A program made the translations under genes and the position numbers. From an uncultured bacterium (GTDB lineage: Bacteria; Acidobacteriota; Thermoanaerobaculia; Multivoradales; JAHZIX01), in assembly GCA_965368975.1 (NCBI GenBank), contig CBDUPA010000005.1:1-64000 (forward strand): a stretch of 64,000 nt of DNA, read 5' to 3'. Under the pieces are notes generated by a model. It ran no database searches. It was given only the letters and a program-made list of their open reading frames with translations, and was not told the origin of the DNA. Shown here in pieces: positions 733 through 27,405 of this stretch. Positions within the stretch are counted from its first letter, which is position 1. Each line of letters starts with the position of its first letter.

Positions 733-3078
733 ATGAAGATGACAACCCTGATGGCCAGAACTCTGGCTCCGCTCCGACTCACCATCCTGACCCTGCTGCT
801 GATCGGGATGCTGCTGCCGTCGATCGCCCAGCGGGCCGCAGCCGAGCTGAACGACAGGGGCGAGGTGACGCTCCCCTTGGCCGAGTATCTGAAGCTGTCG
901 CAAGCGGCACGCGCGGCGCAGCGCGTCGAAGAGCCGGAGCTGCGGCTCGTCGAGTTGGTGTCCGAGCACACGCGCTTGCGTGTCGACGGCGACGCGGTAG
1001 CGGTACGCAGCGAGTACGCCATCGAGGTGCGCGGCATCCCGGAACGCGCGGTGGTCTTGCCGCTCACCGGCTTTGGACACCAGGTGCGGGTAGAGCGCAC
1101 CGACGGGACGAGTGCCGCGACGCGGGACGGGGTGGGCGCCGCGGTGCACCGTCAGGACAGCGAGATCTTGTTCACGGCGGAGGGGCCTGGAAGTTACCGC
1201 GTCGTCGTCGAAGCACGTGACCTGTTGATGGACACCTGGATGGAGATCGCGGAGATCCAGGCGCCGGTGGCGACTCTCTTCCTGGACCTGCCGGCGGGTC
1301 ACCGGTGGGCGTGCGATCATGCCGTCGTGGTCTCGGAGCGGGCCGTTGCCGGGACGACGGGCGAAGGTGCGCGCATCCACGTCGAGATGGCGCTGGAGCA
1401 GGGCGAGCTGTACCACCTGTCGGTGGACCGGCGCGGGGCTCAGGTCGAGGAGGACGTGCTGGCGCACTCGGTCGGTGTCACCTTCGTCGAGGTCGACCGC
1501 GGCGGTGTCCGTCGGCACGATGTGCTGGCCACCGAGGTGCTGCGCGGGGATCTGCAAGGCTACCGCGTCACCCTGCCGCCGGGACTGGACCTGGAGGCCG
1601 TGGCCACCGACGAGGGCGAGGCGGTGCCGTGGATCGGCGACGATGGCAAGCTCGACGTACGGCGCGAGCAGCGCCTAGTCGGGCACGGCTACCTGGCACT
1701 GACTTCTCGGCGGTTGCCGGCCGAAACGGAGGACGGCAGTCGGACGCGCGTCGACCTGACGCCGATCGTGGCGGAGATCCCGCAGCGCACGCGCTACCTG
1801 GTGCTGCTCGCCAGTGCCGCCGCCGAGGTGGTGCCGCAGCCGCAGGCTCAGTGGTCGCGGGTCGATCAGAGTGACCTGCCGGTGCCGCTGCACCAGGATC
1901 TGCAGGCCCTGCGTCCGGCGTCGGTGTGGCGCGCGACGGACCCGGCGGCGGGTGGCGAGTTGCTGGTGCACCGGCTACCCGAAGTGACGACCGCGGAGCA
2001 GGTGATCAGCGAACGCCAGAGCGTCAGCCTGCTGACCCTGGACGGCAGCCTCGTGCTGCGCGACCGCTTCCGGGTCCGTGGGCGGGCGGCGACACTCGAT
2101 GTCGAGTTGCCGGTGGGGGTCGAGCTGTGGACCGTCAACGTCGACGACGAGGCCGTGCGGCCCCTCCATCGGGGTCTAGGGCGGCGCGATTCACGGCAGC
2201 AGGACGGGCTCGCGGCTGGTCAGCCGCAGCTCTACTCGATTCCGCTGGGCTTCCGCGCCGGTCTGGCTGCCGCGGACCCCGGGCAGGACGTGTGGGTGGA
2301 AGTGGTCGGCGTGCGTGCTCTGGCGCAGGGCGCGCCGGCTCCGACGCGCGGTCATTCGAACCTGCGGCTGGAGCTGGCGTCGGTGATGGTGCCGGTCCTG
2401 ATGCACGACTGGCGCGTGTTGCTGCCCCAGGGCGCGCGCTACCGCTATGCCGGCGGCGATCTGCTGCCACTCACCGACCTGACAGCGCCACTGCGTCGAG
2501 GTTGGGGTTGGTCTTCGAGGCGCACCAAGGAGATGCCGTCGCGGGTGATCGAGCGGGGTCTGGGCAACGTTCGCGCCGTGGTCAAGGACGAGCACGGCGA
2601 CACGCTGCCGGGCGTCACGGTGACGCTCATGCTGCGCGGCAGCGAGCTGGAACAGTCGACGGTGACCAACGAGAACGGCCAGGCGACAGTGCTCAATCTC
2701 CAGCCCGGGCAGTATCGACTGGTCGCCCAGCTGGAAGGCTTCGTGACGGTGGAACACCACCTCCAGGTGCGTAGCGGCCAGCTGGCCTCGACCGACGTCG
2801 AGCTGCCGCTCTCGATGCTCGAGGAGTCGATCGTCGTGAGCGCAGAACCGGCGCGGTACTACGACAACACGTTCCTGGTCGAAGAGATGCAGGTCGGACA
2901 GCTGGCGCGCGACGAGGACTTCGCGCGGGCGGAATTCGGGCAGATGAGCCAGGGCCTGGCTGGTGGTGCCAAGCCACTGCCGGTGACGGTGCCGGAGACG
3001 GGCAAGGTCCTGGAGCTGGGCGGCGTGCTGCCACCGGCTCGGGTAAGCGTCGAGCTGGAGGTACGGGCGGAGCGCTAG
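733..3078 (+). CDS. Large exported protein with a carboxypeptidase-regulatory-like (CnaB/transthyretin-type) domain near the C-terminus
   Basis: GGAGG RBS before ATG 733; hydrophobic signal peptide; VKDEHGDTLPGVTVTL...TNENG...LQPGQYRLVAQLEGF motif. Confidence 0.75.
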   Translation: MKMTTLMARTLAPLRLTILTLLLIGMLLPSIAQRAAAELNDRGEVTLPLAEYLKLSQAARAAQRVEEPELRLVELVSEHTRLRVDGDAVAVRSEYAIEVRGIPERAVVLPLTGFGHQVRVERTDGTSAATRDGVGAAVHRQDSEILFTAEGPGSYRVVVEARDLLMDTWMEIAEIQAPVATLFLDLPAGHRWACDHAVVVSERAVAGTTGEGARIHVEMALEQGELYHLSVDRRGAQVEEDVLAHSVGVTFVEVDRGGVRRHDVLATEVLRGDLQGYRVTLPPGLDLEAVATDEGEAVPWIGDDGKLDVRREQRLVGHGYLALTSRRLPAETEDGSRTRVDLTPIVAEIPQRTRYLVLLASAAAEVVPQPQAQWSRVDQSDLPVPLHQDLQALRPASVWRATDPAAGGELLVHRLPEVTTAEQVISERQSVSLLTLDGSLVLRDRFRVRGRAATLDVELPVGVELWTVNVDDEAVRPLHRGLGRRDSRQQDGLAAGQPQLYSIPLGFRAGLAAADPGQDVWVEVVGVRALAQGAPAPTRGHSNLRLELASVMVPVLMHDWRVLLPQGARYRYAGGDLLPLTDLTAPLRRGWGWSSRRTKEMPSRVIERGLGNVRAVVKDEHGDTLPGVTVTLMLRGSELEQSTVTNENGQATVLNLQPGQYRLVAQLEGFVTVEHHLQVRSGQLASTDVELPLSMLEESIVVSAEPARYYDNTFLVEEMQVGQLARDEDFARAEFGQMSQGLAGGAKPLPVTVPETGKVLELGGVLPPARVSVELEVRAER

Positions 3079-3152
3079 GCACGAGAACGCTCGATGTCGA
3101 AACTCTTGCGCAAACACCTTTGACTTCGGGGGCTTGCCGCGTCGCTACTGGT

Positions 3153-3181
3153 TTGACAGCCCCCGGGACGGGGGCGATAAT
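3153..3181 (+). promoter_or_regulatory. Sigma70-like promoter for the hypothetical-rlmN operon
   Basis: TTGACA (3153-3158), 17-nt spacer, GATAAT (3176-3181). Confidence 0.65.
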
Positions 3182-3231
3182 CCCTCCAGACTCGAAGCCC
3201 CGCCATGGCCCGCGGCCGGAAACCTGGCTTC

Positions 3232-3597
3232 ATGACCGGAACCTGCGACGGCGACAACGCCAAATCGGAGTCACTGAGCCCCTTGAAGGATCCGTCTGTA
3301 GAACCTCACCTGCGCTGGCTGCTCGATGATCTCGGGCGGGCCATGAATCTGGCGCTGACCGACGCGGAGCACGTGCACGACACTGTGCGGCGGATCCGCA
3401 GTGCCGGGTACCAGCTGCTGGTGCAGATCGACGCCGAGCGCGACGGCGTGGTGGAGGAGAAATTGCGGCTACGGGCGGCACATCCCAACGACGATCAATT
3501 CAAGCTCAATACTCAGGACGTCGCCTTCCTGCGCTCGCTCGGCATCGATCCCACGCGCCGTGTCGGCCGCCGGCGGGCCAAGAAGCCGCGCCCTTGA
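3232..3597 (+). CDS. Small conserved-looking hypothetical protein (start uncertain)
   Basis: ORF downstream of the promoter, abutting rlmN; protein-like helical sequence ending FKLNTQDVAFLRSLGIDP plus a basic tail. Confidence 0.6.
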   Translation: MTGTCDGDNAKSESLSPLKDPSVEPHLRWLLDDLGRAMNLALTDAEHVHDTVRRIRSAGYQLLVQIDAERDGVVEEKLRLRAAHPNDDQFKLNTQDVAFLRSLGIDPTRRVGRRRAKKPRP

Positions 3598-6266: not shown

Positions 6267-7963
6267 CGGCACCGACCCCCTCTCGGAAGCCACCGCGGCT
6301 TCTGGGGCTCGAAACCGAATACGCGTTTCGCTTTTCGCCTGCGAGCCAGAATCCGGGCAACGATGTCCTCTACGACTATCTGCTCGACGCCATGCGCGAG
6401 CAGGTGGCCCTGAAGCCGGGTGACACCACCATCAAGCGCCAGGTGTTCGCCGAGAACGGCGGCGCGTTCTGCTACGAGCACCTACCTTACGCCACGCGCG
6501 GCGGCCTGTTCGAAGGAGCGACTCCGGAGTGTGCGGGCGTGGGGCAACTGGTGCTGTACCAGAAGGCTCAGGAACGGCTACTGGTGCGCTGCCTGCCGGG
6601 GGCTCAGGATGCCCTGCGACGCCACGGCTGCGAGGGCGAGCTGGGGTTGCTGCGCAACTGCCGGGACGCCGAGGGTCATGTCTTCGGGGCACAGGAGAAC
6701 TACCAGGCCGAGATCGCGCGCGGTCTCCCCCTGGGCCTCTACCGACTGTGCTTGGCACTCTTGCTGCCCCTGCTCCTGGTCCAGGCTGCGATCTACTGGT
6801 CGATCTCGGCCGTGCTCTTGGCAACCGTGGTGCCGGCGAGCATCGGCGCTGTCTTCGTCTCGTACCTGGCGCCCCGTTCCCGTTTCGGTCGCTGGATGCG
6901 ACGTTCGCTCGACGGGGAGACCCACGATCTGGAAGATCTCATCGGCCGCATCACGGCCTGGGTTGTCTTCTCATTGATGTGGCCGCTCCTGCTTCCTTGG
7001 GCACTGCTGTACCGAGCTTTTGCCTTCCGCCGCATTCGCCGGCAAGCCCTGGCCTTCCTGGCGTCGCGCCCCGTCGTGACCGGCACGGGCAGCGTCGACG
7101 AACACGGACGCTTCTCCTTGTCGGAGAAGGCAGCGGCGATCCGGCGTCTGATTCGACTCAGCGTTCGTCCCTCGGACCGCCCTATCTTCGACACCGGGAA
7201 TCTGCTCAAGCCGTTGATGCTGGCCATGGAGCTGAATGGGCGTCCACTGTTGCACTTGTTTCGGCGTCACCAGCGCCTGCAGCTGAGCTTGTCGGACGCG
7301 AACCGGGCCCAGGTCGCCGAGTTCCTGAAGATCGGAACCACCGCGCTGATCCTCGACCTGGTCGAGTCCGGCGCCTTGACCGACGCTCCGCGCCTGCGTC
7401 GACCGCTCGAAGCCTTGCGTTCGTGGAGTGCAGATCCAACGCTCGAAGCGACGGCACCGTTGCGCGATGGTCGTCAATTGAGCGCGCTCGACGTACAGCG
7501 ATGGTACCTCGAGCGCGCCCAGCAATGGCTGCGGGAGCAGGCGTCGCCGTCCTTGGAACAGCAGCAGGTCGTCCAACTCTGGGCCGAGGTGCTCGATGCC
7601 CTCGATCGCCGTGACTTCGGTGCTCTCGTAGGGCAGCTCGACTGGGTGACGAAGCGCTACCTGCTCGAGGAGTGTGGTGATCCCGATCGACCAGAGGTGC
7701 TCAAGACCATCGATCTGCGGTACCACGAACTGCGCGACGGCTACTTCCAGCGCCTGGAGAACATTGGCCAGGCTCCCCGGCTGGTGTCCGACGAGGCCAT
7801 CGACGAAGCGCTCGTGCACCCTCCGGCCACCACTCCCGCCTTCCTGCGTGGTCGCTTCATCCGTGAGAACGAAGAGACCCGCGTGCGCGTGCGGGTCTCG
7901 TGGGACTCGGCCCGGGTTGGCGGTCGGCTCAGTGGTAAGGTCATCCCATTCCAGCGCAACTGA
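6263..7963 (+). CDS. PafA/Dop-family (Pup ligase-like) carboxylate-amine ligase with a transmembrane insertion
   Basis: Ordered family motifs GLETEY, NGG, EGATPEC, GAQENY, RLQLSLSDAN, FLKIGTT, ALDVQRWY, LDWVTKR, IDLRYHEL, PPATT...RGRFI, VSW; hydrophobic insert at about 6722-7030. Confidence 0.88.
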   Translation: MTAPTPSRKPPRLLGLETEYAFRFSPASQNPGNDVLYDYLLDAMREQVALKPGDTTIKRQVFAENGGAFCYEHLPYATRGGLFEGATPECAGVGQLVLYQKAQERLLVRCLPGAQDALRRHGCEGELGLLRNCRDAEGHVFGAQENYQAEIARGLPLGLYRLCLALLLPLLLVQAAIYWSISAVLLATVVPASIGAVFVSYLAPRSRFGRWMRRSLDGETHDLEDLIGRITAWVVFSLMWPLLLPWALLYRAFAFRRIRRQALAFLASRPVVTGTGSVDEHGRFSLSEKAAAIRRLIRLSVRPSDRPIFDTGNLLKPLMLAMELNGRPLLHLFRRHQRLQLSLSDANRAQVAEFLKIGTTALILDLVESGALTDAPRLRRPLEALRSWSADPTLEATAPLRDGRQLSALDVQRWYLERAQQWLREQASPSLEQQQVVQLWAEVLDALDRRDFGALVGQLDWVTKRYLLEECGDPDRPEVLKTIDLRYHELRDGYFQRLENIGQAPRLVSDEAIDEALVHPPATTPAFLRGRFIRENEETRVRVRVSWDSARVGGRLSGKVIPFQRN

Positions 7964-7976
7964 CGAAGGAGCAAGC

Positions 7977-8621
7977 ATGTTTATCTTCGAACAGATACGG
8001 GTCGGTGGCGACCGCAACTTCAGCTACTTGGTGGGCGACAGCGACGCCGGCGAGGCGGTGATCGTGGATCCCAGCTACGATCCCGCGCGTGTTGTCGAGC
8101 GGGCGCGTGCCCAGCATCTCCGCGTGACTCACGTCATCAACACCCATGGTCACCAGGACCACACCAACGGCAATGACGAAGCCTGCCGGCTCACCGGGGC
8201 GCCCCTGGCAGCGTACAAGGGGGCCGCGTCGAATCCCGGACACCCACTCGACCACGGCGCCACGCTGCGTGTCGGCGGTTTGACGCTCGAGTTTCTCTAC
8301 ACGCCCGGGCACGCCGACGATCACCTGTGCATCCGGGTCGACGACGTGCTGATCACTGGTGATCTTCTCTTCGTCGGCAAGATCGGCGGCACGGCGACGC
8401 GTGCTGCGTCCGAGACGGAGTACCGCAGCTTGCACGACCACATCCTCACCCTGCCGGACCACCTCAGCGTCTGGCCCGGTCACGACTACGGCGCGCGTCC
8501 CGCCAGCACTCTGGCCTTGGAGAAGCGGACCAACCCGTTTCTGCTGTGCCCGGACCTGGAGTCCTTCCTCGACCTGAAGAAGAACTGGTCGACGTTCAAG
8601 GCGGAGAAGGGGCTGGTGTAG
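7977..8621 (+). CDS. MBL-fold metallo-hydrolase (glyoxalase II / persulfide dioxygenase-like)
   Basis: AAGGAG RBS; THGHQDH, TPGH, TGDLLF, WPGHDYG, EKRTNPFL motifs. Confidence 0.9.
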   Translation: MFIFEQIRVGGDRNFSYLVGDSDAGEAVIVDPSYDPARVVERARAQHLRVTHVINTHGHQDHTNGNDEACRLTGAPLAAYKGAASNPGHPLDHGATLRVGGLTLEFLYTPGHADDHLCIRVDDVLITGDLLFVGKIGGTATRAASETEYRSLHDHILTLPDHLSVWPGHDYGARPASTLALEKRTNPFLLCPDLESFLDLKKNWSTFKAEKGLV

Positions 8622-8643
8622 ATCCGGATGCGGCTTCGCCGCA

Positions 8644-8669
8644 GGGCAGGCACATGGGCCTGCCCCTAC
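8644..8669 (-). repeat. GTAG-type REP-like palindrome, with a second degenerate GTAGGGGC copy at 8692 on the + strand
   Basis: Minus strand reads GTAG-GGGCAGGC-CCATGT-GCCTGCCC (tetranucleotide plus near-perfect stem); located between convergent genes. Confidence 0.55.
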
Positions 8670-8754
8670 CCAGAATTCGCTGCCTTCTAATGTAGGGGCC
8701 TTCCGGGCCGGTTGGTGGCGCCCCTCTTCCATTCAATGGGAGAGGGTTCTTCAG

Positions 8755-9270
8755 CTATTTCTGCCCTGCAGCCGGCCGTGGCCGTGTCGGTATCGGACCG
8801 CGGCGCGGTGGATAGAGGGCCAGGTTCTGGTTCACTGCGTAGCCGGCGCTCACCAGGTCGCGCATCAGCGCGAACTTCCAAATGCCGATCTCGTCCATCG
8901 GCATGCACAGCACCTCGGAGAACGCCTCGGGCAGGTCCATGCCCTGCTCGGACAGTGCGGTGACGTAGCGGCGGCCGAACTTGCCGATGAAGTAACCGAG
9001 CTTGAACACCACATTCTGCCCGGGCCTCGGCTTGAGTTGGACGTCGCCCTTGGTGCCGATGCGGCCCAGGTCGTCCGGGGTCAACAAAACCACGGCGTAC
9101 GAATGCGACGCGTAGTCCTCAAAGCGCTCGACGACGGTCTGTGGCTCCTGGTCGTGCAGCGGGATCGGATTCAGGCCGATGGTTTGCAGAAAGCGCACCA
9201 CGGCCTGCGAAGCTTCCCCTGCTTGCGTATAGACGACGAAGACGTTTTTCTTCTTATGGACCAGGGCCAC
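8755..9270 (-). CDS. Stand-alone TIR-like nucleotide-binding domain protein (CAP12/Pycsar-effector TIR type)
   Basis: VFVV, GLNPIPLH, TVVERFE, YAVVLLTPDD, RPGQNVVFKLGYFIGKFGR motifs. Confidence 0.85.
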   Translation of the reverse strand: MALVHKKKNVFVVYTQAGEASQAVVRFLQTIGLNPIPLHDQEPQTVVERFEDYASHSYAVVLLTPDDLGRIGTKGDVQLKPRPGQNVVFKLGYFIGKFGRRYVTALSEQGMDLPEAFSEVLCMPMDEIGIWKFALMRDLVSAGYAVNQNLALYPPRRGPIPTRPRPAAGQK

Positions 9271-11170: not shown

Positions 11171-13324
11171 CTACCGATCCACGACGAGTTCGAGTTCGCC
11201 GAGATCCAACCCTTGCCCTTCGCTCAGCTCGATAGACCGGAGCAAGCCTGGCGCTGCGAGTTGGTACCCGCCGGCAGGTAGATGTGGCAACTCGAAGCGA
11301 CCATCTGCGCCGGGTCGAGCGCTGGCGTTCCAGCGTCCGTCGTGCAGCGACTGCAGACGCAGCGTGCCCCGGAACGGTCTACCCTCGGTGTCGAGGAGGC
11401 GCCCGGCGACGGAGCCGGAGGGGAGTGGGAGAACCAAGTCCGGTGGTACCTCCCCTGCGTCGAGCAAGGCAATGGGAACGCTACCTGCGGGTGCCGGATC
11501 CTGGGTGTCCCCGAACTGTAAGAAGAGCTGTAGCGCTTCACCTGGGCGATGGTCCACGCGATAGCGTCCGGGCTCTTCTGGGTAGTGGTGGTCCGAGCGG
11601 TCGCCCGAGATGCTGAACAGCGTTGCCTGGGCGAAACGCCCGGCCGGCGCCGGTACCAGGTCCACCCGGATCTTTGGGGCCCCGGTCCGCAACTCGACGA
11701 TCGAGGTCTCGCCGGCTTTCACTTCGGCTGTGACGCGATGACGGCCCCCTTGCACGATGACCATCGAGCCCAGGTTGCGCACTTCTGGTAACTCGACCGT
11801 ATAGCGTCCAGGTGCCAGTGCGGCGGTCTGCCACTCGCCGGCACCGTCAGTGTTGTGCATACCGCCACCTGGGGAGACCTGCACTCGGCAACCGCGGCAT
11901 GGTGCCTCCTCGCTCTCGTCCCACACGCGCACCAACAGGTGGCCGCCACGGCTGAGCGTCAGCTCGATCGGTTCGTCGACGGCGGTCGGTGGAATCGCGA
12001 CGCGACGGCTCGCATAGCCCGAGGCAGTGATCTCAACCTGTATCAAGTCGTCCAGCGCCGCGGTCAGGTAGAAGGTGCCGTCAGCGTCCGTCACGGCGGC
12101 GCCCACACCAGGCGGATCCAGCACGCGCAGCCGTGCACCCTCGACCGGCTCCCCGGTTTCGAAGTCGACCACTTGCCCGCTCAGCTCGGGCGCAGGTTCC
12201 AGCGTCACGTCAGCGACTTGTCGACGCCGCCCGGCGTCCAGCTCGACTTGCAACTGCTGGGCTCGATAGCCGGGGGCCGCCAGGAGCAGCGCGTAGTGTC
12301 CCGCCGGGATGTCGTCGATCTGGAACTGCCCCTCCTCGTTGGTCGGCCGCCGTGCCGCAGCGCCGCCTGCCCCGGCATCCAGCGAGCGGAGTGTCGCCAA
12401 CACGCCGGACAGCTTGGCTCCATCGGTGTCGACCACGCGCCCGGCCACGCTTGCCAGCGGAGCCAGTGCGCATTCGGCGAGTACGGGCAGTTGCTGAAAG
12501 CTCAGCTGCTCCGTCGCGTGGCCCAACGCCAGACACCGGACCTGTGTCGGCACGTCCGCCCGCAGTCCGGACACCGTCGCACGTCCGTCCGCATCCGTCG
12601 TGGCTTCGAAGAAGATCAGATCTTCCGGTCCCAACCCTTGACTCAAACCCACCTGTGTCTCGCCTAGCGGCAGTCCGTTCGTGTCTGTCACGACGATTCC
12701 TAGGCTCAGGCCCGGATCCACCCAGATCTCGCCCAAGTCGTAGACCAGCTCGGCCTCGGACTCCGTCTCTTGGCTGGCCGGTGGTGGTGGCAGGATCTCG
12801 AACGCGTCCGTGTGGTGTTGCCGCCCGCCCGGCAAAGTGGTGGTCAAGCGGTAGTGTCCCGGTGTCAGCTTCGGCAATCGGAAGGTGCCGTCCTTGTTGC
12901 TCTCGATCGAACGCACGAGGGCGCCATCGTCGAGCCTCAGCGGCATCGTCACCAGCCGCGCCGTCGGCAGGGCTGCCGGCACGATGCGAATGATCGCACC
13001 GGGAATCGGCTCTTCGCCGAGCACGTAGCCTCCTATGACGGGCAAGCCCGCCCGCGGAGCCGGTGGCGTCCAGGTAGTGCCGTCGTTGGCGGGAAAGTGG
13101 ACGTCGCACCCGAGTGGCTGGCCAGCGCCGCCGGAGCAGAGCAGCAAGATTTCGCTGTCCGGCAGCTCGATGGCCGGAGAGTCGGCGTCGAAGTGGTGGA
13201 GTTGGGGAGCGTCGTTGGAACTCAGGGGGGTAACTTCGAGCCAGCTGGGCGCCTCTTCCGCGCCACTAGCCACACTCAGCCAGGCGAGTGCTAGTGCGAC
13301 GAGAGTCACCCTACATTGACTCAT
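11171..13324 (-). CDS. Exported protein with multiple carboxypeptidase-regulatory-like repeats
   Basis: ATG 13324 overlaps the peptide gene stop (ATGA); signal peptide; repeated GRVVD..G.P..GA / TDADG.F / PAG.Y motifs. Confidence 0.8.
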
Positions 13325-13575
13325 CCAGCGGGCTTCCAGCTGCAAACACGATTGCAGCCAGTCGAGCTGCAACCACACCAACCCACAAAGTGCCAACCTG
13401 GGTTGTCGCCGCAACCGCAGTTCGTTTGGCAGCAGTATTGGCAGTTGGCAGGGCAGTTGCCGGAACCACCACTCCCAGCTCCCGGATCCTGTTGAAACTG
13501 AGCAGGGGTGAGTAGAGCAAAAGCGGAACAGGCGACGACGAGGACCAGGGCGATCCAGAAGAATCTTTTTCGCAT
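13321..13575 (-). CDS. Secreted cysteine-rich peptide, copy 1 (84 aa, 10 Cys in the mature part)
   Basis: AGGAG RBS before ATG 13575; MRKRFFWIALVLVVACSAFA signal, Gly linker, then [44 protein letters not shown]; homologue at 25.1-25.4 kb. Confidence 0.85.
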   Translation of the reverse strand: MRKRFFWIALVLVVACSAFALLTPAQFQQDPGAGSGGSGNCPANCQYCCQTNCGCGDNPGWHFVGWCGCSSTGCNRVCSWKPAG

Positions 13576-13585
13576 GACGAGACTC

Positions 13586-14608
13586 CTATTGTTGGCTTGG
13601 GTCTGCAATACCTTGCTCGAGCTGTTCAAAAGGAACTGCCGAGACGCACAGTTGAGAGTGTGGAAAACCGGCGGGCACGAAGAACAGGAAGTTCTCGTCC
13701 CAGGCACTGTGAGATAGAGCGCAGCATGAAGTTGCGACTTCATGAAGACTGACGGCATGCACTTGCCCTTGTACAGCCAACTTTCTCAGCTGAGCAGTAC
13801 CGCGCTCCTTGTCGCACCGCTCGACCCACCAAGCATTACCTTCCGGATCCAGCGTTGGGAAGGACCACAACTCGAAGCTGGATTCGAGCCTTTCGCCCTG
13901 CTCTTTCTGTTGCTGGTCCATCTGGTCCAGCATGGGTTTCAACTCGTCGAGTTTTGGATGCAAGAAGCGCTCGTGGAGCAGGACTTGACCTTGGAAGTCG
14001 TACACCATGATCGTGCCGCTCAGGCTGTCAATGCTCCACAGACGCCCCCTTGCGAAGTCGACTTCGAGGAAGACATCTCGCAACACAAAGTGTCCGGTTC
14101 CTGTTGCAGGGATCGCATCCTCCTCTCCCCAGCGGTCCACGATCGCTTTCTCGTTTAGGTCGTAGATCCAGATTCGCTCCGGCGAACGCCTAGGAGACAG
14201 GGCGAGTCGGTTTTCGCCGAGCCATGCGACTGCTCCGACGGGTCCGCCAAGTGGGCCGATGAAAAGCTCGCCCTCGTCTGGCTTCCGTTTCACCCACAGG
14301 GCTTGCTGATCCAGGCCGACTGCGACCAGGCCCCACTCCGAGTCGAAGTCGACATAGCGAATATCGGGAAAGCGGACGGTGTGGAGCCACTGGCCAGCTG
14401 GCGTCAGGATTCGTAACCAACCACCGTTACGGAAGTTCCAGGTCCAGAGGTTCCCGACACGATCTGTTCCCATCTCGCTGGCGGTCACGTGTTCGAGAAC
14501 CTGGAGGGCTGTCGAAGATGGTGGGTTTGATTGGGAGACTAGACAGAGCGGCAGGCAGAGTCCAAGGACCCAGCAATAGAGACTTACTCGCTTGAGGAGG
14601 TACTGCAT
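13586..14608 (-). CDS. Exported hypothetical protein, probable beta-propeller (NHL/YncE-like), copy 1
   Basis: Signal peptide; ASEMGTDRVGNLW, DSEWGL, GENRLALSP and SIDSLSG motifs shared with 25397-26380. The fold is inferred. Confidence 0.75.
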   Translation of the reverse strand: MQYLLKRVSLYCWVLGLCLPLCLVSQSNPPSSTALQVLEHVTASEMGTDRVGNLWTWNFRNGGWLRILTPAGQWLHTVRFPDIRYVDFDSEWGLVAVGLDQQALWVKRKPDEGELFIGPLGGPVGAVAWLGENRLALSPRRSPERIWIYDLNEKAIVDRWGEEDAIPATGTGHFVLRDVFLEVDFARGRLWSIDSLSGTIMVYDFQGQVLLHERFLHPKLDELKPMLDQMDQQQKEQGERLESSFELWSFPTLDPEGNAWWVERCDKERGTAQLRKLAVQGQVHAVSLHEVATSCCALSHSAWDENFLFFVPAGFPHSQLCVSAVPFEQLEQGIADPSQQ

Positions 14609-14864
14609 TGCGGGAGTCTAGGATGGATGTCTTACCTGGTCAAACCTGGACTGGTCTACTCTCCCGGAACTCACCCTAGCTGTCGCAAGCACTCGCCAAC
14701 TCGCTGCAGGTAGTCGCGTTCATGATCGTCGTCCCAGCCATCGCTGGACGTCTCAGCCGAAGGTTTCTGCCACCTCGAAACTCAGTCCCGGCAAGACGGA
14801 CGAAGTTGCACGGCGCTGCGCGCTTGGTAGGTTGGATCCATGCCGGAATGCGAGCAGAAGCTGT

Positions 14865-17094: not shown

Positions 17095-20000
17095 TCACCA
17101 CTTCCAGTCGAACAGCTTGAGGAAGGTGATGAAGGCGGAAACGCCATCGTCGGGGCCGGCGACGGCTTTGCCGACTTCGAGGTTGATGATCGTCTCCCAC
17201 GGACCGAGGACAGTGCCACCGAGGCCGATGCCGGCGAGGAACTCGTCTTCGAGACCGCTGGCTTCGTCGGTCGCCAGGAAGCCGTCGGCTTCGATCTCCA
17301 GGCGGAAGACTTCGCCGATCTCGACGCCGTACTCCAGGTTCATGCCGTAGGCGCGCTCGGCACGCACCCGGTCGCTCTGGTAGCCGTTGATACGCGAGTC
17401 GCCGAAGAAGCCGAACTGGTACTTGCTGAAGCGGTCGAGATCCTGGCCATCGAGGTACTGCAGCGAGACGCCGAACTTGCGGAAGTTGGGCAGCCACCAA
17501 GTCTTGCCCAGGGAGACGTTCCACTTGACGAAGTCTTCGGTCTCGGGATCGAAATCTTCCAGTGCGGCGCCGGGGATAGGGGAGCCGGGTAGGCCCCAGG
17601 GCTGCCAGTCAGAGCGCTGGTTGTAGGAGCCGCTGGTCAGGAAGCGGTAGCCGCTGCGGTTGTAGGCCAGGTCGACCTGGAAGGTGTGCAGCAGGTGGTC
17701 CTCGGGCAGCACGAAGCCGGCCGCGGTGTCGTCGGCGTCGCTGTAGTTGTTGACGCGCAGGCTGTAGGTGAAGTCGATCTTGCCAAACTCGCCGAGCGGC
17801 CGTCCGAGGAAGAGGGAGAAGCGGGCCTGGCGGTTCTCGATCTCCTGCTCTTCGATCTCCTCGTCTTCGAAGAAGAGTGTGTCGCTGCCGGCAATGGCCA
17901 GCGCGAAAATGCTGGCACCGGCATCCCACTCGGAGCCGAACAGATCCGGGTCGGCGATATTGCCGATCGCCAGCACGCCGCCGAAGAGCAGGTTCGCCTG
18001 GGCACCGGTGCCAAGGAAGTCGAAGCTGAAGTAGTTGACGCCGGCCAGTGGTAGCGGGAAGTCAAAGCTCTCGTCGTAGAAGACGCCGCCGAGGGCGAAC
18101 AGCTGGTCCTTCTTGAAGCCGTCCTGGACCACGCGCTCGCCGGTCTCGTCGTCCTTGACCAGGTAGCGCAGGCCCTGGTCGGTGTCGCGCACCATGGTGG
18201 TGTCGGATGCCAGCACTTCCTGCCGCTGGCGCTCGAAGTCTTCGGGGTTGATCTGTAGCGCGGAGAGCAGGGTTTCGGTCTCGACCACGACGGTCGAGTT
18301 GAGCACATTGAGCAGCTGCTGGCTGGTCTGGCGCAGCGGCATCCACAGGGCCTCGGGCGTCCAGGTGGTGGGCTCGCCGGCTGGGGTCACCGGGGTGAAG
18401 AAGGTAGTCTCTTCGTTCGACAGTACTTCGCCTTCGAGTCCCAGCTGTAGCGCGCGCGTGCGCACGCGGCCGAAGTGCTGGCGATCGACCCAGACGGTTC
18501 CCTGGTAGAGGGTGCGGCCGGGTTCGACCTCGACCGCGGGTTCGAAGTCGACCACCCAGGAGTCGCGGCCGTCGACGATGTCGGTGCCGCGCAGGCGGTA
18601 GAGGTACTCCTTGGTGAAGTTGATCTCGAGCGGCGGCGCGGCTGCTTTCTCGGGCTGTACCAAGGGGATCTGCGGAATGTCGTCACCGCGCCAGCGCACG
18701 CCGTCGAAGTAGAAGTTCTCCCACGCCCAGTCGAAGCCCTCGCCGCGCTGGAAGAAGAAGGAGCCCTCGAAGGTCGCCTCGACGCTGCCCGGGCCGGTGC
18801 CGCTGAGCTGGAAGCGCATGTGGGTGGTGTTGAGGGCGCGGTAGCGTTGCAGTCGTCGGGCCTGGTTGTCGTCGAAGGCTTGCAGCCGGCGCAGGATCTC
18901 CTCGACCGGCATCTGGCGCTCGTCGGAGACGGTGATCTCGCTCTCGACACCCTCGAGACCCTCGATCTCGGCGGCGGTCATGCGCTCCAGGCGTAGCAGG
19001 GCGACGTGGCCGGGTTCGGGCACGGTGAGCTGCAGGCCGTCGTCGGTGCGGCGCTGGCTGAACAGATCGTAGAAGCTATTGGAGGCGGCGTCCCAGCGGG
19101 CTGGGCGCTTGAGCTGGGAGTCGGGGAACTGGACGGTCAGCTCCTCGGTGTCGGCGGGTACGTCGACAATGATCCGCAAGCTGAGGTCGTCGCCGCGCAC
19201 GAAGCTCCAGGCGCCGCGGCCACCCTCGGGACGCGAGTAGGGATCGAGAGCGATGTCACCCTGGAATTCGCGCGCCAGCACCTTGAAGGGTTCGACGCCC
19301 TCGGGCGACTCGACGCTCTCTCCGGCGCCGAAGAAGGTCAAGGCGAAGCCCTGTTCATGGCTGTCGGCGGCTCGCACCAGGACGTGCCAGGGGTTGTCGG
19401 CGGGGGTTGGCAGCTGATCCAGCACGACGGCACGGCCGGCGTCGAGTACGGCGACCCGGGCGATGGCGGCCCTGCTCCCTTCCGGGGTTTCGCCGGGCAA
19501 GAGGGCGACGCCGTCGATGTAAGCCGCGATCTCTTCAGCGTACAGCGCGTCGATCAGGTTCGGATCGGCCGGCAGGGCCTGCGTCAACACCCGAGCGTCA
19601 GCGCGGGCGCCGGTGATGGCGACCGAAGCGCGCTTGAGCAGGAACGCATATTCGCGCGACCAGTCTTCGAGCGCTGTCAGCGGGATGCCGGCGGTCACCG
19701 GCTGCCACACGACCTGGAAGTGTGTGCGCTCGCCCGCCGCCTCGGCCAGGCTGGCGGTGGCCTTGAGCGCGGCGTCGAGCTGGTCGGCGTTGTCGAGCAC
19801 CGGTGCTGGCACGCGGAAGATCAGTCGCAACCAGGGCACGCCGCCGGCGTCGCGCACCTGCTGTGCCAGTTCGCCGACCTGTGCCGACTGTTGATCGAGG
19901 CTTCCGACGCGCAGGATGTCGAGGTCGGCGGGCCAGGAGATGTAGAGCCTGGCTTGGTCGCCGATTTCCTCGTCGTGCAGCCGGGGCTCGGCGCCGAGGG

Positions 20001-20157
20001 CACGAAAGAAGTCGTTCGTCAGCTGCTCCGGAGCGTCGAAGCTGAGGCCCGCGCACGGCGCACACGGGGGTGTTTGTGTCAGGCCGGCGACGGGAAGCAG
20101 GAGGAGTGTCAGGAGGAAGAGTCTATAGATCATGGAGGGGAATTCCTGGTTGTTCAT
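17095..20157 (-). CDS. Large exported/outer-membrane protein with a C-terminal beta-barrel-like region
   Basis: Signal peptide (start may be 20133); central GTVWVD..F segment; alternating aromatic strands; terminal aromatic residue (FDWKW). Confidence 0.7.
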   Translation of the reverse strand: MNNQEFPSMIYRLFLLTLLLLPVAGLTQTPPCAPCAGLSFDAPEQLTNDFFRALGAEPRLHDEEIGDQARLYISWPADLDILRVGSLDQQSAQVGELAQQVRDAGGVPWLRLIFRVPAPVLDNADQLDAALKATASLAEAAGERTHFQVVWQPVTAGIPLTALEDWSREYAFLLKRASVAITGARADARVLTQALPADPNLIDALYAEEIAAYIDGVALLPGETPEGSRAAIARVAVLDAGRAVVLDQLPTPADNPWHVLVRAADSHEQGFALTFFGAGESVESPEGVEPFKVLAREFQGDIALDPYSRPEGGRGAWSFVRGDDLSLRIIVDVPADTEELTVQFPDSQLKRPARWDAASNSFYDLFSQRRTDDGLQLTVPEPGHVALLRLERMTAAEIEGLEGVESEITVSDERQMPVEEILRRLQAFDDNQARRLQRYRALNTTHMRFQLSGTGPGSVEATFEGSFFFQRGEGFDWAWENFYFDGVRWRGDDIPQIPLVQPEKAAAPPLEINFTKEYLYRLRGTDIVDGRDSWVVDFEPAVEVEPGRTLYQGTVWVDRQHFGRVRTRALQLGLEGEVLSNEETTFFTPVTPAGEPTTWTPEALWMPLRQTSQQLLNVLNSTVVVETETLLSALQINPEDFERQRQEVLASDTTMVRDTDQGLRYLVKDDETGERVVQDGFKKDQLFALGGVFYDESFDFPLPLAGVNYFSFDFLGTGAQANLLFGGVLAIGNIADPDLFGSEWDAGASIFALAIAGSDTLFFEDEEIEEQEIENRQARFSLFLGRPLGEFGKIDFTYSLRVNNYSDADDTAAGFVLPEDHLLHTFQVDLAYNRSGYRFLTSGSYNQRSDWQPWGLPGSPIPGAALEDFDPETEDFVKWNVSLGKTWWLPNFRKFGVSLQYLDGQDLDRFSKYQFGFFGDSRINGYQSDRVRAERAYGMNLEYGVEIGEVFRLEIEADGFLATDEASGLEDEFLAGIGLGGTVLGPWETIINLEVGKAVAGPDDGVSAFITFLKLFDWKW

Positions 20158-23412: not shown

Positions 23413-24516
23413 TCAGCAGTTGGGGGCCTTGTTCCAGCTGCCCGCTCCTCGCATCGTGTCGACCATCGTCTGCATCAGGTTCAGGCTCTCCGGCTGGTTC
23501 TCGTAAGCGAACATCATGCCGCCCGCATAGCCGTCCTTGATGACTTCCTGTGACTGCGGTCCCACGAGACCCCACTCGCCACTGAAACGATTCTCAGCCG
23601 AGAAGCCGAGACTCAGCTGGTTCTTTGTCATGCCGTAGCCCAGATACGGGCTCAGTCGGGGGCCAACACTCCCGTAGTAGGACATTTCCCAGCCATAGTT
23701 GAGGCTCTCGGCCAGCGTGTGACCGTTCCAGTTGCCGGAGAACGGACCAGAATCAGCCCACAGAGCTTTGGTGATCAGCTTGTCTGGCATCGTTTGCCGC
23801 ATCAGCGTTGTCACCATGGGCAGGGATGTGTTGTTGGCCGGACCGTTGCTGTACTCGTCATCAATGTCGATGCCGTCGAGCTGGTAGGGGTCGACGACGT
23901 ATTGCTGCAGGTAGTTGACGAAGTTCTGGGCGGTTTGTTGGTCGGTGAACTGCGACCAGCCGGTATCCGTGTGTGCATTCATGATCGTCAACAGAACCGT
24001 GATGCCCTTGTCCTGCAAGGTCTGCACGAGGCCAGCGTCCAACACGGACTGGATGTTCGGATTGAGCGGTTTGTCCGTCGGCGGATCGTTGTTGTTGGCG
24101 CGCAGCATGGGGATTGTGTTGGTTGCGTAGTTGCCCGCGAACAAGCAAGCGACATCGATCGCGGGTGTGCCGTCTGTTCCCACGTAACACTCGATGTCCT
24201 GGAACTGGGCGTTGTTGGCGGGGCTGATGTAGACGGTCGAGATCGCGGTCTTCTCGTAAGAGTCGCACTGTGGCGCGCTGCCGTAGTGGGGATCTCCTGT
24301 GAAGAATACGGCGTCACCAGGCTCGAACGGGCTGTATTTGGCGGCAGGGCCGTCGAGCACCATGTACTCGCGGCAGTAGAAGAAGAACGTGATGTTTGGA
24401 TTGGCGAAGGCGGTACGCATCGCCGCCTGCGGAGTTGTTCCGGACACCTTGCTCACGAAGTTGTCCCAGCTGGCTTGACCGTACTGCGCAACGTTGTCTT
24501 TCTTGTCCCATCCCAT
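23413..24516 (-). CDS. GH18 endo-beta-N-acetylglucosaminidase (EndoH-like) with an extra N-terminal domain
   Basis: LDGIDIDDEY catalytic motif, LFAGN, LQDKGITVLL, YGWEMSY. Confidence 0.85.
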   Translation of the reverse strand: MGWDKKDNVAQYGQASWDNFVSKVSGTTPQAAMRTAFANPNITFFFYCREYMVLDGPAAKYSPFEPGDAVFFTGDPHYGSAPQCDSYEKTAISTVYISPANNAQFQDIECYVGTDGTPAIDVACLFAGNYATNTIPMLRANNNDPPTDKPLNPNIQSVLDAGLVQTLQDKGITVLLTIMNAHTDTGWSQFTDQQTAQNFVNYLQQYVVDPYQLDGIDIDDEYSNGPANNTSLPMVTTLMRQTMPDKLITKALWADSGPFSGNWNGHTLAESLNYGWEMSYYGSVGPRLSPYLGYGMTKNQLSLGFSAENRFSGEWGLVGPQSQEVIKDGYAGGMMFAYENQPESLNLMQTMVDTMRGAGSWNKAPNC

Positions 24517-24552: not shown

Positions 24553-25116
24553 TTAGCGCCACGGCCGGCTGGTCGGCTCTCCGGCTTTTCCGGGGCCGGC
24601 CAGACCGGGTGGCGGGCCAAGAATCTCCGTGAGCAGAACCGCCCGCTGCAGAGACTCCGGGCCGCTACTGAGGTCGCGCACCAGGTTCTGTGCCAACCTG
24701 GACGGCTTGGGCGGTGGTGCGTGCAAGCTGCCGAGTGCTGGCAACGGCGGCAGGGGCTCTTCGACGGTGGACTTGAATACGCCCTCGTCGCGATGCTCTT
24801 CCCGCTCAATCACCGACCAGCCTGCTTGCTCCCGCTCGGAGGCGGCCTGAGCCTCGGCGACTCGCCGCAGTTCTTCCGCCTTGCGTAGGGCGATCTGTTC
24901 CGGTGTCTCGACGCCCATCTCGTTGAGAATCTGTTGCTGCGCCTGCTGACGCACCTGCTGCAGTTGCTCCAGCAGAGTTTGGCCCGAGTCTTCCGCAGCC
25001 GGTGCCGGGCTCTGCCCTGGACGGTTCTTCTTCATGCGCCGGTTGCGCACCGCACCGGCGATGGCCGAGAGAACCGACCAGACGAGCAGCAGGAGGATGG
25101 GGGCTAGTTCTTCCAT
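24553..25116 (-). CDS. Single-TM hypothetical protein, YqfB-like flotillin operon partner
   Basis: MEELAPILLLLVWSVLS N-terminal TM; C-terminal LQRAVLLTEILGPP motif typical of genes following floA. Confidence 0.7.
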   Translation of the reverse strand: MEELAPILLLLVWSVLSAIAGAVRNRRMKKNRPGQSPAPAAEDSGQTLLEQLQQVRQQAQQQILNEMGVETPEQIALRKAEELRRVAEAQAASEREQAGWSVIEREEHRDEGVFKSTVEEPLPPLPALGSLHAPPPKPSRLAQNLVRDLSSGPESLQRAVLLTEILGPPPGLAGPGKAGEPTSRPWR

Positions 25117-25126
25117 GACGGCTGCA

Positions 25127-25400
25127 TCAGGATCCGGCAGGAACGTAGTGGCAATCTCGCTGACAGAGAGCCGCTGCACATACAGGACGCATAGAGGCTC
25201 ATACCGTCAATGCTTTGGCAGCCGCAAAGCGGAGTGCTGCAATAAGTACAGACGGCAGCCCCTCCGCCTGTTAGGTCTGGTGGTTCTTGCACGAACGGAT
25301 CACGGCCGGTAGCTTCGGTTGGTTGGAATGCGAGCGTGCCGACGAGGGCAGCACAGAGAACGACGAAGACTAAGGCGAAGCTGAGTTTCTTGAGCTTCAT
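25127..25400 (-). pseudogene. Secreted cysteine-rich peptide, copy 2, with an apparent frameshift at 25165-25170
   Basis: Signal plus CTYCSTPLCGCQSIDGMSLYASCMCSGS in one frame; the homologous tail CQRDCHYVPAGS* is in another frame (TGT at 25165, TGA at 25129-25127). Read as given, the ORF runs to 25104. Could be a sequencing error. Confidence 0.75.
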
Positions 25401-26380
25401 TGCATGCTCCCTATTCCTATGCAGCGTTCAGCACCGCTGTCTGGTGCTTGGTAACGAATGATGGTTGAGTTACCCCAGCGGGTGAACATCCGTGAGGGAC
25501 ACGCAGAACTCGGCTGGGCGCGCGTCGATACGAGTTTCCGCGTCGTGAGACTCTTGGACGCATTCAGTATCTGGAGGCTCGAGCCGTCCTGCGCTTCTAG
25601 CGCCAGAAGTCTGCAGTCTCCGTCGACATCGAATCCGGCGATCCGGCGCAGTGAGATATCCATCGCCTCTCCGTCCCTTTTGGCGCGTCGGTCCATTTCT
25701 TCCAGCTGTTGGGCGAGACGAGGATTCGAGTGCGGGGCGATGTGCCCGCTCCACAGGAACTCTCCAGAAGTGGAGTAGACCTCAAGATCGCCGTTCATGC
25801 CGTCGAGACTGAAGATCTGGTTCTCTTGCGGGCAGGAGCGCAGCAGGATCGATCTCAGGAGAACGAGTCCGGGGCGAAACACGACGGGCTCTTCTTCACC
25901 CAGCTTGGCGACTAACCTTCCGGTATCTACAGCCCAAATGGAGAGGCGATGATCAGCGCTCAGCGGTGCGACAGCGATTCTATTCTCACCGATCCAGCGA
26001 ATCTCGCCAGCCTGATAGGGGAGGCGGATGCGTTTGTCATCACGTCCATTCCACCGCGTGACTTCTACAACTCGCCGGCTGCTCATCAGTGAGACGTGGG
26101 CAATGCCCCACTCGGAGTCGGCATCGACCGCCAAGGCGACCTGCAACCGCCGGCTTCCCAGGCGTTCCCCGCGAGGGCTGATCAGGTCGATGCGTTCGTC
26201 CTTGCGATCGAAGACCCAGAGGTTACCGGAGCGATCTCTACCCATTTCTGACGCGCCACCATAGCTCTCGATCAGCGCTAGAGCTTCCGCCGTGGGTTCG
26301 GGCGGCGTGCTCCGCTCCTGAGTGCCTGCCATGGCAGGCAGGTTCAGGAGCAGGAGCAGTGTTGGCAGCAGGGACCGCAT
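25397..26380 (-). CDS. Exported hypothetical protein, probable beta-propeller, copy 2
   Basis: MRSLLPTLLLLLNLPAMA signal; ASEMGRDRSGNLW, DSEWGI, GENRIAVAP, SLDGMNG; stop overlaps the peptide ATG (ATGA). Confidence 0.78.
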   Translation of the reverse strand: MRSLLPTLLLLLNLPAMAGTQERSTPPEPTAEALALIESYGGASEMGRDRSGNLWVFDRKDERIDLISPRGERLGSRRLQVALAVDADSEWGIAHVSLMSSRRVVEVTRWNGRDDKRIRLPYQAGEIRWIGENRIAVAPLSADHRLSIWAVDTGRLVAKLGEEEPVVFRPGLVLLRSILLRSCPQENQIFSLDGMNGDLEVYSTSGEFLWSGHIAPHSNPRLAQQLEEMDRRAKRDGEAMDISLRRIAGFDVDGDCRLLALEAQDGSSLQILNASKSLTTRKLVSTRAQPSSACPSRMFTRWGNSTIIRYQAPDSGAERCIGIGSMQ

Positions 26381-26384
26381 TGGA

Positions 26385-27371
26385 TCAACCCTGTTCCTCG
26401 CTACCTGGGTCTGGCTTGTCCGTGGTCTGTGACGAGATCGAGCTGCGCATGCTGGTGTCGGACTCGATGTTGCGCATACGGTAGTAGTCCATGACGCCCA
26501 GGTTGCCGCTGCGGAAGGCATCGGCCATCGCCTTGGGTACCTGCGCTTCGGCTTCGATCAGGCGCGCGCGCATCTCCTGCGTGCGGGCCTTCATCTCTTG
26601 CTCCTCGGCGACCGCCATGGCACGGCGGGATTCGGCGCGCGCCTGAGCGACCTTCTTGTCGGCCTCGGCCTGGTCGATCTGCAGACTGGCGCCGACGTTG
26701 GCACCGACGTCGACATCGGCGATGTCGATGGACAGGATCTCGAAGGCGGTGCCGGAATCCAGGCCCTTGCCCAGAACCATGCGCGAGATCGAGTCGGGGT
26801 TTTCCAGCACGTGCTCGTAGGTGTCCGACGAACCGATGGTGGTCACGATGCCCTCGCCGACGCGGGCGATGATCGTTTCCTCACCGGCACCGCCGACCAG
26901 GCGGTCGATGTTGGCGCGCACGGTGACGCGGCTGATGGCCTTGAGCTGAATGCCGTCTTTGGCGACGGCGGCGACCACCGGGGTGGTGATGACCTTCGGG
27001 TTGACGCTCATCTTGACCGCTTCGAGCACGTCACGGCCGGCTAGGTCGATGGCGGCGGCGCGCTTGAACGTCAGCGTGATGCCGGCCTTGTCGGCACTGA
27101 TCAAGGCGTTGATCACGTTGGCGACATTGCCGCCAGCCAGATAGTGAGCTTCCAGCTCACCGACGCCGATATCCAGGCCGGCCTTGATGGCACTGATGCG
27201 TGGTTCGACGATGACGCTCGGTGGTACGCGGCGGATACGCATGCCGATCAGGTCGCGAAGACCGACGGTAGCGCCGCTGAAGCGCGCGGCCAGCCACAGG
27301 CGAACAGGGATGAAGTACGTGAATAGGAATAGGAGTAGGGCGATGCCGAGGATGGGGAGAAGGACTTCCAC
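26385..27371 (-). CDS. floA: Flotillin-like protein FloA (YqfA family)
   Basis: [56 protein letters not shown]. Confidence 0.95.
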
Positions 27372-27405
27372 GATGCAACCTCCGTTGGCGCGCTAGGGCG
27401 CCGTA

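Follow-up and report, generated by a model that had tools for sequence, protein, structure and literature searches.

Six-bladed beta-propellers of eukaryotes bind Cys-rich modules, as in the pairing of nidogen with laminin LE modules and of the YWTD propellers of LDLR/LRP with EGF modules or cystine-knot ligands. In methylamine dehydrogenase, a propeller heavy chain is found together with a disulfide-rich light chain. The propellers of the NHL type, namely the NHL domains of TRIM2, TRIM71 and Brat, the sensor domain of PknD and the Pizza6 designs, consist of six four-stranded blades. In QHNDH, three subunits are encoded together: an alpha subunit of four domains (60 kDa), a beta-propeller (36 kDa) and a gamma subunit (9 kDa) whose Cys residues form cross-links (PMC8172795). 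The bacterial cis-defensins fall into five classes with 3-4 or more disulfides and a Cys-stabilised helix motif, and one member is from Acidobacteria (PMC11561630). In this study, we analysed a 64,000-nucleotide stretch of DNA, hereafter the window (positions 1 to 64,000 of contig CBDUPA010000005.1, assembly GCA_965368975.1), from an uncultured bacterium of the Thermoanaerobaculia (Acidobacteriota), in which genes for a propeller, a Cys-rich peptide and a transthyretin-like repeat protein lie side by side. Judged by sequence, these genes constitute a rare, unannotated three-gene cassette of uncultured Acidobacteria, and on balance we favour the reading that their products are exported and assemble into a complex of several proteins, in which the miniprotein serves the propeller as a dedicated ligand or small subunit.

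The first copy of the cassette in the window (copy 1) is read from the minus strand. Gene A (13586-14608, taken from the list of open reading frames, ORFs) encodes a 340-aa predicted exported NHL-like six-bladed beta-propeller with a helix inserted in blade 5, gene B (13321-13575) encodes an 84-aa precursor in which a signal peptide and a QFQQDPG/Gly-Ser linker precede a C-terminal domain of 44 aa containing 10 Cys, and gene C (11171-13324) encodes a 717-aa protein, also predicted to be exported, that is built from CarboxypepD_reg (transthyretin-like) beta-sandwich repeats and has three pairs of invariant Cys, one of which is a P-C-x-G-C. The arrangement is that of translationally coupled genes: genes A and B are separated by a 10-nt gap with an AGGAG overlapping the TAG stop of gene A, and the TGA stop of gene B (13323-13321) is overlapped by the ATG of gene C (13324-13322) to form an ATGA. 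The original prediction had described a two-gene module occurring twice in the window. Both gene pairs were indeed found in the same order and tightly coupled, by the 10-nt gap with AGGAG in copy 1 and by an ATGA overlap in copy 2, but the coupled gene at 11171-13324 had been missed and the usual unit consists of three genes.

The cassette propeller has the same fold as the NHL propellers but differs from them in its blade-5 helix insert, its conserved C-terminal Cys set and its predicted export, and in having a dedicated Cys-rich peptide and a CarboxypepD_reg chain to which it is fused or adjacent; neither Pfam, its NHL model included (E ≤ 0.1), nor NCBIfam gave a match to it. Like the eukaryotic propeller-ligand pairs, for which the entry titles 1npe, 3p5b and 3v65 name complexes, the cassette combines a six-bladed propeller with a disulfide-rich module of about 40-60 residues, although it is bacterial, no sequence relation to those pairs was detected, and its predicted contact, an edge-strand pairing on the blade 5 side, is not known to resemble theirs. 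QHNDH and methylamine dehydrogenase represent the closest known plan, but the cassette has no sequence relation to them and its Cys residues would form disulfides instead of thioethers. The cassette peptide resembles the bacterial cis-defensins in its signal peptide and its putative stabilisation by disulfides. The helix motif of those peptides consists of a CxxxC in a helix and, further along, a CxC in a strand. The cassette peptide differs from them in having CxC at two places before the only CxxxC, in its 8-10 Cys and fixed propeller partner, and in that no helix is predicted by its low-confidence model. The comparison with defensin folds suggested in the original prediction was thus negative for the Cys-stabilised helix motif, as judged from the spacing and from this low-confidence model.

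A total of three propeller genes were found in the 7.1-Mb genome of the organism, and the peptide profile matched exactly four places, all directly downstream of propeller genes, which means that the pairing is not due to chance. The third locus, on contig 12, comprises genes for a propeller of 326 aa, for two 90-aa peptides in tandem and for a third-protein homologue of 745 aa. The propeller profile was found in 20 of 299 other genomes of the window's order at E ≤ 1e-10 (21 of 300 including its own), in 8 of 301 genomes drawn from the class, and in its own genome only among the 401 of an even draw of the phylum (0 of 400 others). Between 3 and 18 first-look candidates per genome were scored in these profile searches and in those with the peptide and the third protein, and absence here means not found with that query. 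Thirteen of the 20 other propeller genomes in the order have a family peptide and a third gene adjacent, and in all six further propeller genomes, from other orders of the class, a peptide gene separates the propeller gene from the third gene. The three-gene cassette was therefore seen at another contig of the same genome and in 19 other genomes. Peptide genes were detected by profile in 13 of the 299 other genomes of the order, where twelve adjoin a propeller gene and the thirteenth (G445) is located at a contig start. The adjacency of the peptide to a cognate partner that the original prediction had anticipated is borne out by these counts, and the proposed profile search for co-occurrence placed the peptide genes almost only beside propeller genes. 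No conserved genes were found outside the trio among 14 loci.

A hidden Markov model (HMM) search of 1.84 billion representatives with the propeller retrieved 1557 proteins at E ≤ 1e-3, of which 273 remained at a cutoff of 1e-10 and 130 at a cutoff of 1e-30, and a word-index protein search with the copy 1 propeller as the query gave only the propeller itself and one 79% relative. Where database names are given for the homologues, they read 'hypothetical protein' only, and two peptide matches identical to the peptides of genomes G654 and G035 bear the label Thermoanaerobaculia bacterium.

The AlphaFold2 (AF2) model of the copy 1 propeller (predicted local distance difference test, pLDDT, 83.1; predicted template modelling score, pTM, 0.81) contains 24 strands in six four-stranded blades, with the helix of blade 5 at residues 220-236. 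The N-terminus of the protein, as read from its residues, is hydrophobic. Structure comparison (Foldseek, VIA) produced a flat list of six-bladed propellers with NHL domains on top. The VIA matches include the NHL domains of TRIM2 (Z 17.2, root-mean-square deviation (rmsd) 3.8, 240 residues aligned) and Brat (Z 16.9), PAL (3fw0; Z 16.5, rmsd 3.8, 244 residues), DUF4221 (Z 15.9), 3p5b (Z 15.2), 3v65 (Z 14.9) and 1npe (Z 14.7). With NHL domains as its best structural matches at Z 16-17, the modelled protein is best described as an NHL-like six-bladed beta-propeller. Among the PDB sequences, the propeller family profile matched NHL-type Pizza6 designs (1.5e-7) and the NHL domain of TRIM71 (6.6e-5) over blades 1-2, and the ESM Atlas neighbours belong to NHL/DUF5128 clusters of Acidobacteriota and Aminicenantota. 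The propeller has no His, Ser, Lys or Glu among the columns of its alignment that are invariant or nearly so, and hence no catalytic set was seen in it. A divergent propeller subfamily was also observed in one genus (loci L026, L027, L030-L032 and L034), with an Ala/Pro-rich insert and an adjoining purM-like gene; the 439-aa protein P0053 is of this type.

The peptides consist of a basic-hydrophobic signal-like N-terminus, an F-x-Q-D-P-type motif, a Gly/Ser run and a C-terminal Cys domain of 40-45 residues, and the signal-like N-terminus, Pro/Gly-rich linker and Cys scaffold reported earlier were seen in both copies in the window. Eight Cys are invariant in the peptide alignments, and the invariant columns comprise only these Cys and one Gly. 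The domain contains 6, 8 or 10 Cys in each of the 32 intact peptides, always an even number, and the extra Cys pairs arise together, at three different position pairs. These even counts and paired additions favour disulfides over metal binding; of the two characters that the original prediction had offered for the peptide, disulfide-rich or metal-binding, the first is thus favoured and the second disfavoured. On this sequence evidence the peptides represent a real family of miniproteins that are predicted to be exported and are most likely disulfide-bonded.

The lone peptide domain was predicted to contain aromatic and Thr/Ser-rich strands and no helix (pLDDT 62). Comparison of this model with 48,161 chains gave nothing above Z 2.2, which at such a pLDDT does not show a new fold. 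The peptide profile had one chance match among the PDB sequences (E 0.24), and no match to the peptide was found in Pfam (E ≤ 0.1) or NCBIfam. Two further ideas on the peptide were dropped. For a likeness to the beetle antifreeze beta-helices, suggested by the Thr/Ser-Cys spacing, the sequence search gave no such match at E ≤ 10. The VVAC of the copy 1 peptide was considered as a lipoprotein signal, but the 80% identical homologue P0153 has no Cys there.

The complex between propeller and peptide was predicted from residues 27-340 of the former and 24-84 of the latter, with our own alignments of 25 and 24 rows respectively. The interaction prediction score from aligned errors (ipSAE) reached 0.90, 0.90 and 0.89 compared to 0.00 for the best of three controls, and in the calibration 116 of 157 solved complexes attain that mark as do 2 of 215 mismatched pairs. 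At least 77% of the contacts are common to the runs, with a partner pLDDT of at least 68. The predicted interface is formed by residues 55-84 in the Cys domain of the peptide, not by the linker, and by residues 241-247 and others of the propeller. The contacts with the lowest error are between peptide residues 77-82 and propeller residues 241-247, the strand directly after the helix insert, in a register like that of strand addition. Position 80 of the peptide, at the centre of this interface, is aromatic in 24 of 24 aligned sequences. We know of no like complex, and it is therefore unlikely that the score goes back to a solved structure which the model had memorised. The model supports, but does not show, docking of the peptide directly on the propeller, and to this extent the direct interaction with a partner that had been proposed earlier is upheld.

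The third protein matches Pfam CarboxypepD_reg at 1.3e-47 over five stretches. In twelve orthologues six Cys are invariant, and these are grouped locally as three pairs. One pair is the P-C-x-G-C, which reads PCRGCR in the window's gene C with no His after it. The profile of the third protein had no match among the PDB sequences. Propellers fused to a third protein with no peptide between them were found in three metagenomic proteins, P0015 (1029 aa), P0123 (1064 aa) and P0134 (1028 aa). A fusion of the two is also present in genome G432, where the peptide gene is located upstream of the fusion. A metagenome scan with P0015 gave 90 pattern stretches, none of which was confirmed. All three products of the cassette have signal-peptide-like N-termini and conserved Cys pairs, which suggests that they are made for an oxidising envelope or exterior.

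The third protein is more widespread than the cassette, as its profile had matches in 37 of 300 genomes (E ≤ 1e-40), and 23 of the 24 genomes of family f6 are among them. Seven loci of that family (L062-L066, L068 and L069) encode stand-alone third-protein homologues of 777-916 aa. Five of them adjoin a small gene that resembles pterin-4a-carbinolamine dehydratase, and three are also near two ABC ATPase genes and a membrane-fusion-like gene, in each case by eye from the translations. At another locus (L067, genome G596) a reduced 6-Cys peptide (1190-1402, plus strand) is directly followed by a third gene (1418-3595, plus strand), and the gene upstream is unrelated and on the opposite strand.

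Purifying selection acts on the components of the cassette. In one close species pair, the propeller (81% identity) and the third protein (87%) both had a ratio of nonsynonymous to synonymous substitution rates (dN/dS) of 0.22, and the peptide (85%) had one of 0.33, with 0.15 for its Cys domain. For the Cys domain, dS could be estimated in two of three close pairs, and dN/dS there ranges from 0.15 to 0.37; the values for tandem peptide paralogues range from 0.14 to 0.22. In 20 trios the Cys domain had a mean pairwise identity of 0.44, compared to 0.33 in the third protein and 0.29 in the propeller; this set excludes G749, whose peptide was missed by the pattern, and G607, which has no peptide. 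The description of the family as diversifying is therefore not supported, given these dN/dS values and a Cys domain that is on average more conserved (44%) than the propeller (29%), and the differences between the peptides of copies 1 and 2 are explained by an old paralogy, with propellers that are only 31% identical. Peptide and propeller relatives go together, as the 80% identical peptide P0153 accompanies the 79% identical propeller P0002. In the test of co-phylogeny suggested in the original prediction, the distance matrices of the three components correlate in the 20 trios (r 0.80, 0.55 and 0.51; 0 of 5000 permutations each), though shared species history could produce this.

The second copy in the window is also on the minus strand. 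Its gene A (25397-26380) encodes a 327-aa propeller that was identified by BLASTP and by the family profile, which it matches at 6.5e-97 over positions 3-322 of 323. The propellers of copies 1 and 2 are paralogues (31% identity over 225 aa, E 9e-26, BLASTP). The TGA of this propeller gene and the ATG of the peptide gene overlap as ATGA, with the peptide ORF starting at 25400. In its present frame (25104-25400) gene B has 98 codons for amino acids and follows the Cys scaffold of copy 1 up to CMCSGS, after which the scaffold is lost; 7 Cys remain in the domain, and the peptide profile matches at positions 6-74 only. The ancestral tail appears to be preserved in the neighbouring frame at 25127-25165, which reads CQRDCHYVPAGS followed by a stop, with the frame break at about 25163-25170. 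This tail, which supports the frameshift noted in the original prediction, gives back two invariant Cys and a PAG ending common to the copy 1 and G029 peptides, and the shift-corrected domain has the 8 Cys of the family compared to the 10 of copy 1, in agreement with the one extra Cys pair noted for the latter. No remnant of a third gene was detected near copy 2 by tblastn (best regional match E 2.5). With its intact propeller, apparently frameshifted peptide and no third gene, copy 2 is best regarded as a partial copy, probably one in decay or put to another use. The propeller and peptide genes of both copies have a GC content of 0.57-0.60 and a GC content at third codon positions (GC3) of 0.60-0.68, as opposed to a GC3 of 0.76-0.84 in the genes flanking the cassettes and a mean GC of 0.656 in the window, which confirms the lower GC of the modules reported before. 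All the sequence observations of the original prediction that could be tested held.

In the complex that we favour, the 40-45-residue C-terminal domain of the peptide would fold with four or five disulfides after export, and its C-terminal strand, centred on the conserved aromatic after the last Cys, would dock on the strand that follows the blade-5 helix insert. The propeller would work physically with the transthyretin-like domain chain of about 720 aa, with which it forms one polypeptide in some organisms. The miniprotein would then belong to an exported complex of two or three proteins, as a dedicated small subunit or a tightly bound ligand, and would not be a free diffusible product. The function of such a complex could be binding or adhesion, structural, or enzymatic. 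A more specific picture, in which an undescribed exported complex has a miniprotein of 4-5 disulfides that completes or caps the six-bladed propeller by strand addition and a propeller that sits on a transthyretin-like stalk, is tentative and in our opinion rather unlikely. Two variants of it would be new. In one, the complex is an adhesion or receptor-ligand head whose miniprotein 'tips' can be exchanged; tandem peptide genes and interface residues specific to the cognate pair would be in keeping with this. In the second, by analogy with the quinoprotein amine dehydrogenases, it is an enzyme class with its active site in the small Cys-rich subunit.

Several observations weigh against a dedicated complex of this kind. 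The trio is not obligatory, as every pairwise subset occurs somewhere: in G607 the propeller gene directly precedes the third gene and a peptide gene is missing, in G596 a 6-Cys peptide and a third gene occur with no propeller, and copy 2 in the window is a propeller with a frameshifted peptide without the third gene. Six genomes of one genus have the divergent propeller and neither partner. The distant stand-alone homologues of the third protein occur in 23 of the 24 f6 genomes, only 2 of which were matched by the propeller profile, and no adjacent propeller or peptide was observed at the seven loci inspected there. A common history of the species would by itself suffice to produce the correlated distances. 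As for the structural models, the peptide alone folds at low confidence (pLDDT 62), the propeller residues at the predicted interface are poorly conserved, and the score of the complex is a model confidence obtained with our own alignments.

The alternative closest to the original prediction is that of a secreted antagonistic miniprotein (bacteriocin-, toxin- or defensin-like) with the propeller as its immunity protein, chaperone or carrier. A small, disulfide-rich and apparently exported peptide with a Gly-rich linker would suit this role, although a Sec signal alone would be expected to lead to the periplasm of a diderm cell, the cassette contains no conserved exporter, protease or membrane immunity gene, and no toxin was matched in PADLOC or Pfam. 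The patchy spread (21 of 300 genomes of the order, 0 of 400 others across the phylum), the multi-copy loci with tandem duplication of the peptide and the GC3 below that of the neighbours are also in its favour, but the dN/dS values of 0.15-0.37 give no sign of diversifying selection and the peptide domain is more conserved than its partner. The predicted tight binding would fit an immunity or carrier protein as well as a complex. The 720-aa third protein and its fusions to the propeller are left without a role by this explanation, which we consider unlikely.

The products could also form an enzyme-like complex built as in the quinoprotein amine dehydrogenases, where a propeller and a large multi-domain subunit enclose a small Cys-rich subunit with a cross-linked or cofactor-bearing site. 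The architecture is similar, and the three proteins of the cassette have 717, 340 and, in the mature peptide, about 60 residues. Neither the propeller nor the peptide matched a Pfam family of those enzymes, or any other (E ≤ 0.1), however, and the propeller has six blades and not seven, with no His, Ser, Lys or Glu among its (nearly) invariant columns. The nearly invariant aromatic next to the last Cys of the peptide would be in keeping with this plan, but no Trp, the residue that gives rise to the quinone cofactor in the small subunit of those enzymes, is invariant in the peptide and many members are without any. The same applies to the invariant P-C-x-G-C of the third protein, where the lack of a His after the pair (PCRGCR) means that there is no c-type haem site. 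In addition, no conserved gene for a radical-SAM protein (QhpD), a protease or a MauG-like protein was found nearby among the 14 loci. Taken together, a complex of this type appears quite improbable.

The propeller could also be the maturase of the peptide, acting either in C-terminal amidation at the ...PAG end, as the propeller-fold lyase PAL does, or in cyclisation of an N-terminal Gln. This idea draws on the position of PAL among the best structural matches (3fw0, Z 16.5), but the ranking is flat, with many unrelated six-bladed propellers at Z 15-17. Three peptides end in PAG, PAGGF or PAGS, and several predicted mature N-termini start with Gln on cleavage sites that were guessed, whereas most family members have no terminal Gly and no conserved His or metal-ligand set is present in the propeller. 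The predicted contact is furthermore a broad strand pairing with the folded Cys domain and not an end inserted in a pocket, and we regard this role as very improbable. A metal-binding periplasmic peptide (metallothionein- or metallochaperone-like) handled by the propeller is more doubtful still, as its Cys content of 20-25% with CxC, CGC and CxxC spacings is offset by the even counts in 32 of 32 peptides and the paired extra Cys, which disulfides require and metal sites do not, by signal peptides that imply an oxidising compartment, and by the aromatic and Thr/Ser-rich strands predicted. As for the precursor of a ribosomally made, post-translationally modified peptide (RiPP), no conserved modifying enzyme, protease or ABC exporter was found among the 14 loci, and the N-terminus, with basic residues, a hydrophobic stretch and small residues in this order, looks like a Sec signal and not like a cytoplasmic leader.

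Other features of the window were noted around the two copies. A promoter-like site (TTGACC-17-TAGACT, 14615-14643, minus strand) was identified by a consensus scan directly upstream of gene A in copy 1. It agrees with the consensus at 9 of 12 positions, and with one site compared to 0.5 expected in shuffles it constitutes weak evidence. A 171-aa TIR-domain protein (8755-9270, minus strand) is encoded 2 kb downstream of the cassette and matches the Pfam CAP12/Pycsar effector TIR family (2.8e-20) and the PADLOC candidate system PDC-S35 (3.5e-41), next to a 263-aa protein (7941-8732, minus strand) without a family. Between the two copies, a 1020-aa protein (17095-20157, minus strand) has a signal-like N-terminus, no Pfam match at E ≤ 0.001 and the C-terminus ...LFDWKW; aromatic C-termini of this kind are seen in outer-membrane barrels. 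A 367-aa GH18/EndoS-like protein with weak Pfam matches (2.3e-5) is encoded at 23413-24516 (minus strand), and its gene combines a low overall GC of 0.586 with a high GC3 of 0.80, a combination not shared by the cassette genes. Directly upstream of copy 2, the stretch 26385-27948 (minus strand) contains a flotillin-like FloA gene (Pfam 1e-160), followed by a membrane protein that looks NfeD-like by eye.

No description of the cassette was found in a literature search that covered main texts, with supplements aside. Neither the propellers nor the peptide nor the third protein matched any family of the anti-phage defence models in PADLOC at E ≤ 0.01, and Rfam had no match in the window. The statement in the original prediction that this is not a described system thus stands, as the cassette is unexplained by Pfam, NCBIfam, PADLOC, the PDB or the literature. 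The NHL-like propeller fold and the common CarboxypepD_reg repeats are known, and the miniprotein family in its fixed genetic arrangement is new.

If the reading of a dedicated exported complex is true, the peptides would be a new bacterial family of disulfide-rich miniproteins with 8 invariant Cys in about 40 residues, unmatched in the PDB and in family libraries. Such a family, with a built-in and predictable protein partner, would be a natural scaffold-and-binder pair of possible use in peptide engineering. The natural fusions and the permutations in gene order would make the three-way partnership directly testable by co-expression. For the biology of the Thermoanaerobaculia-type Acidobacteria, which are known almost only from metagenomes, the cassette would provide a first handle on an unannotated complex of their envelope.

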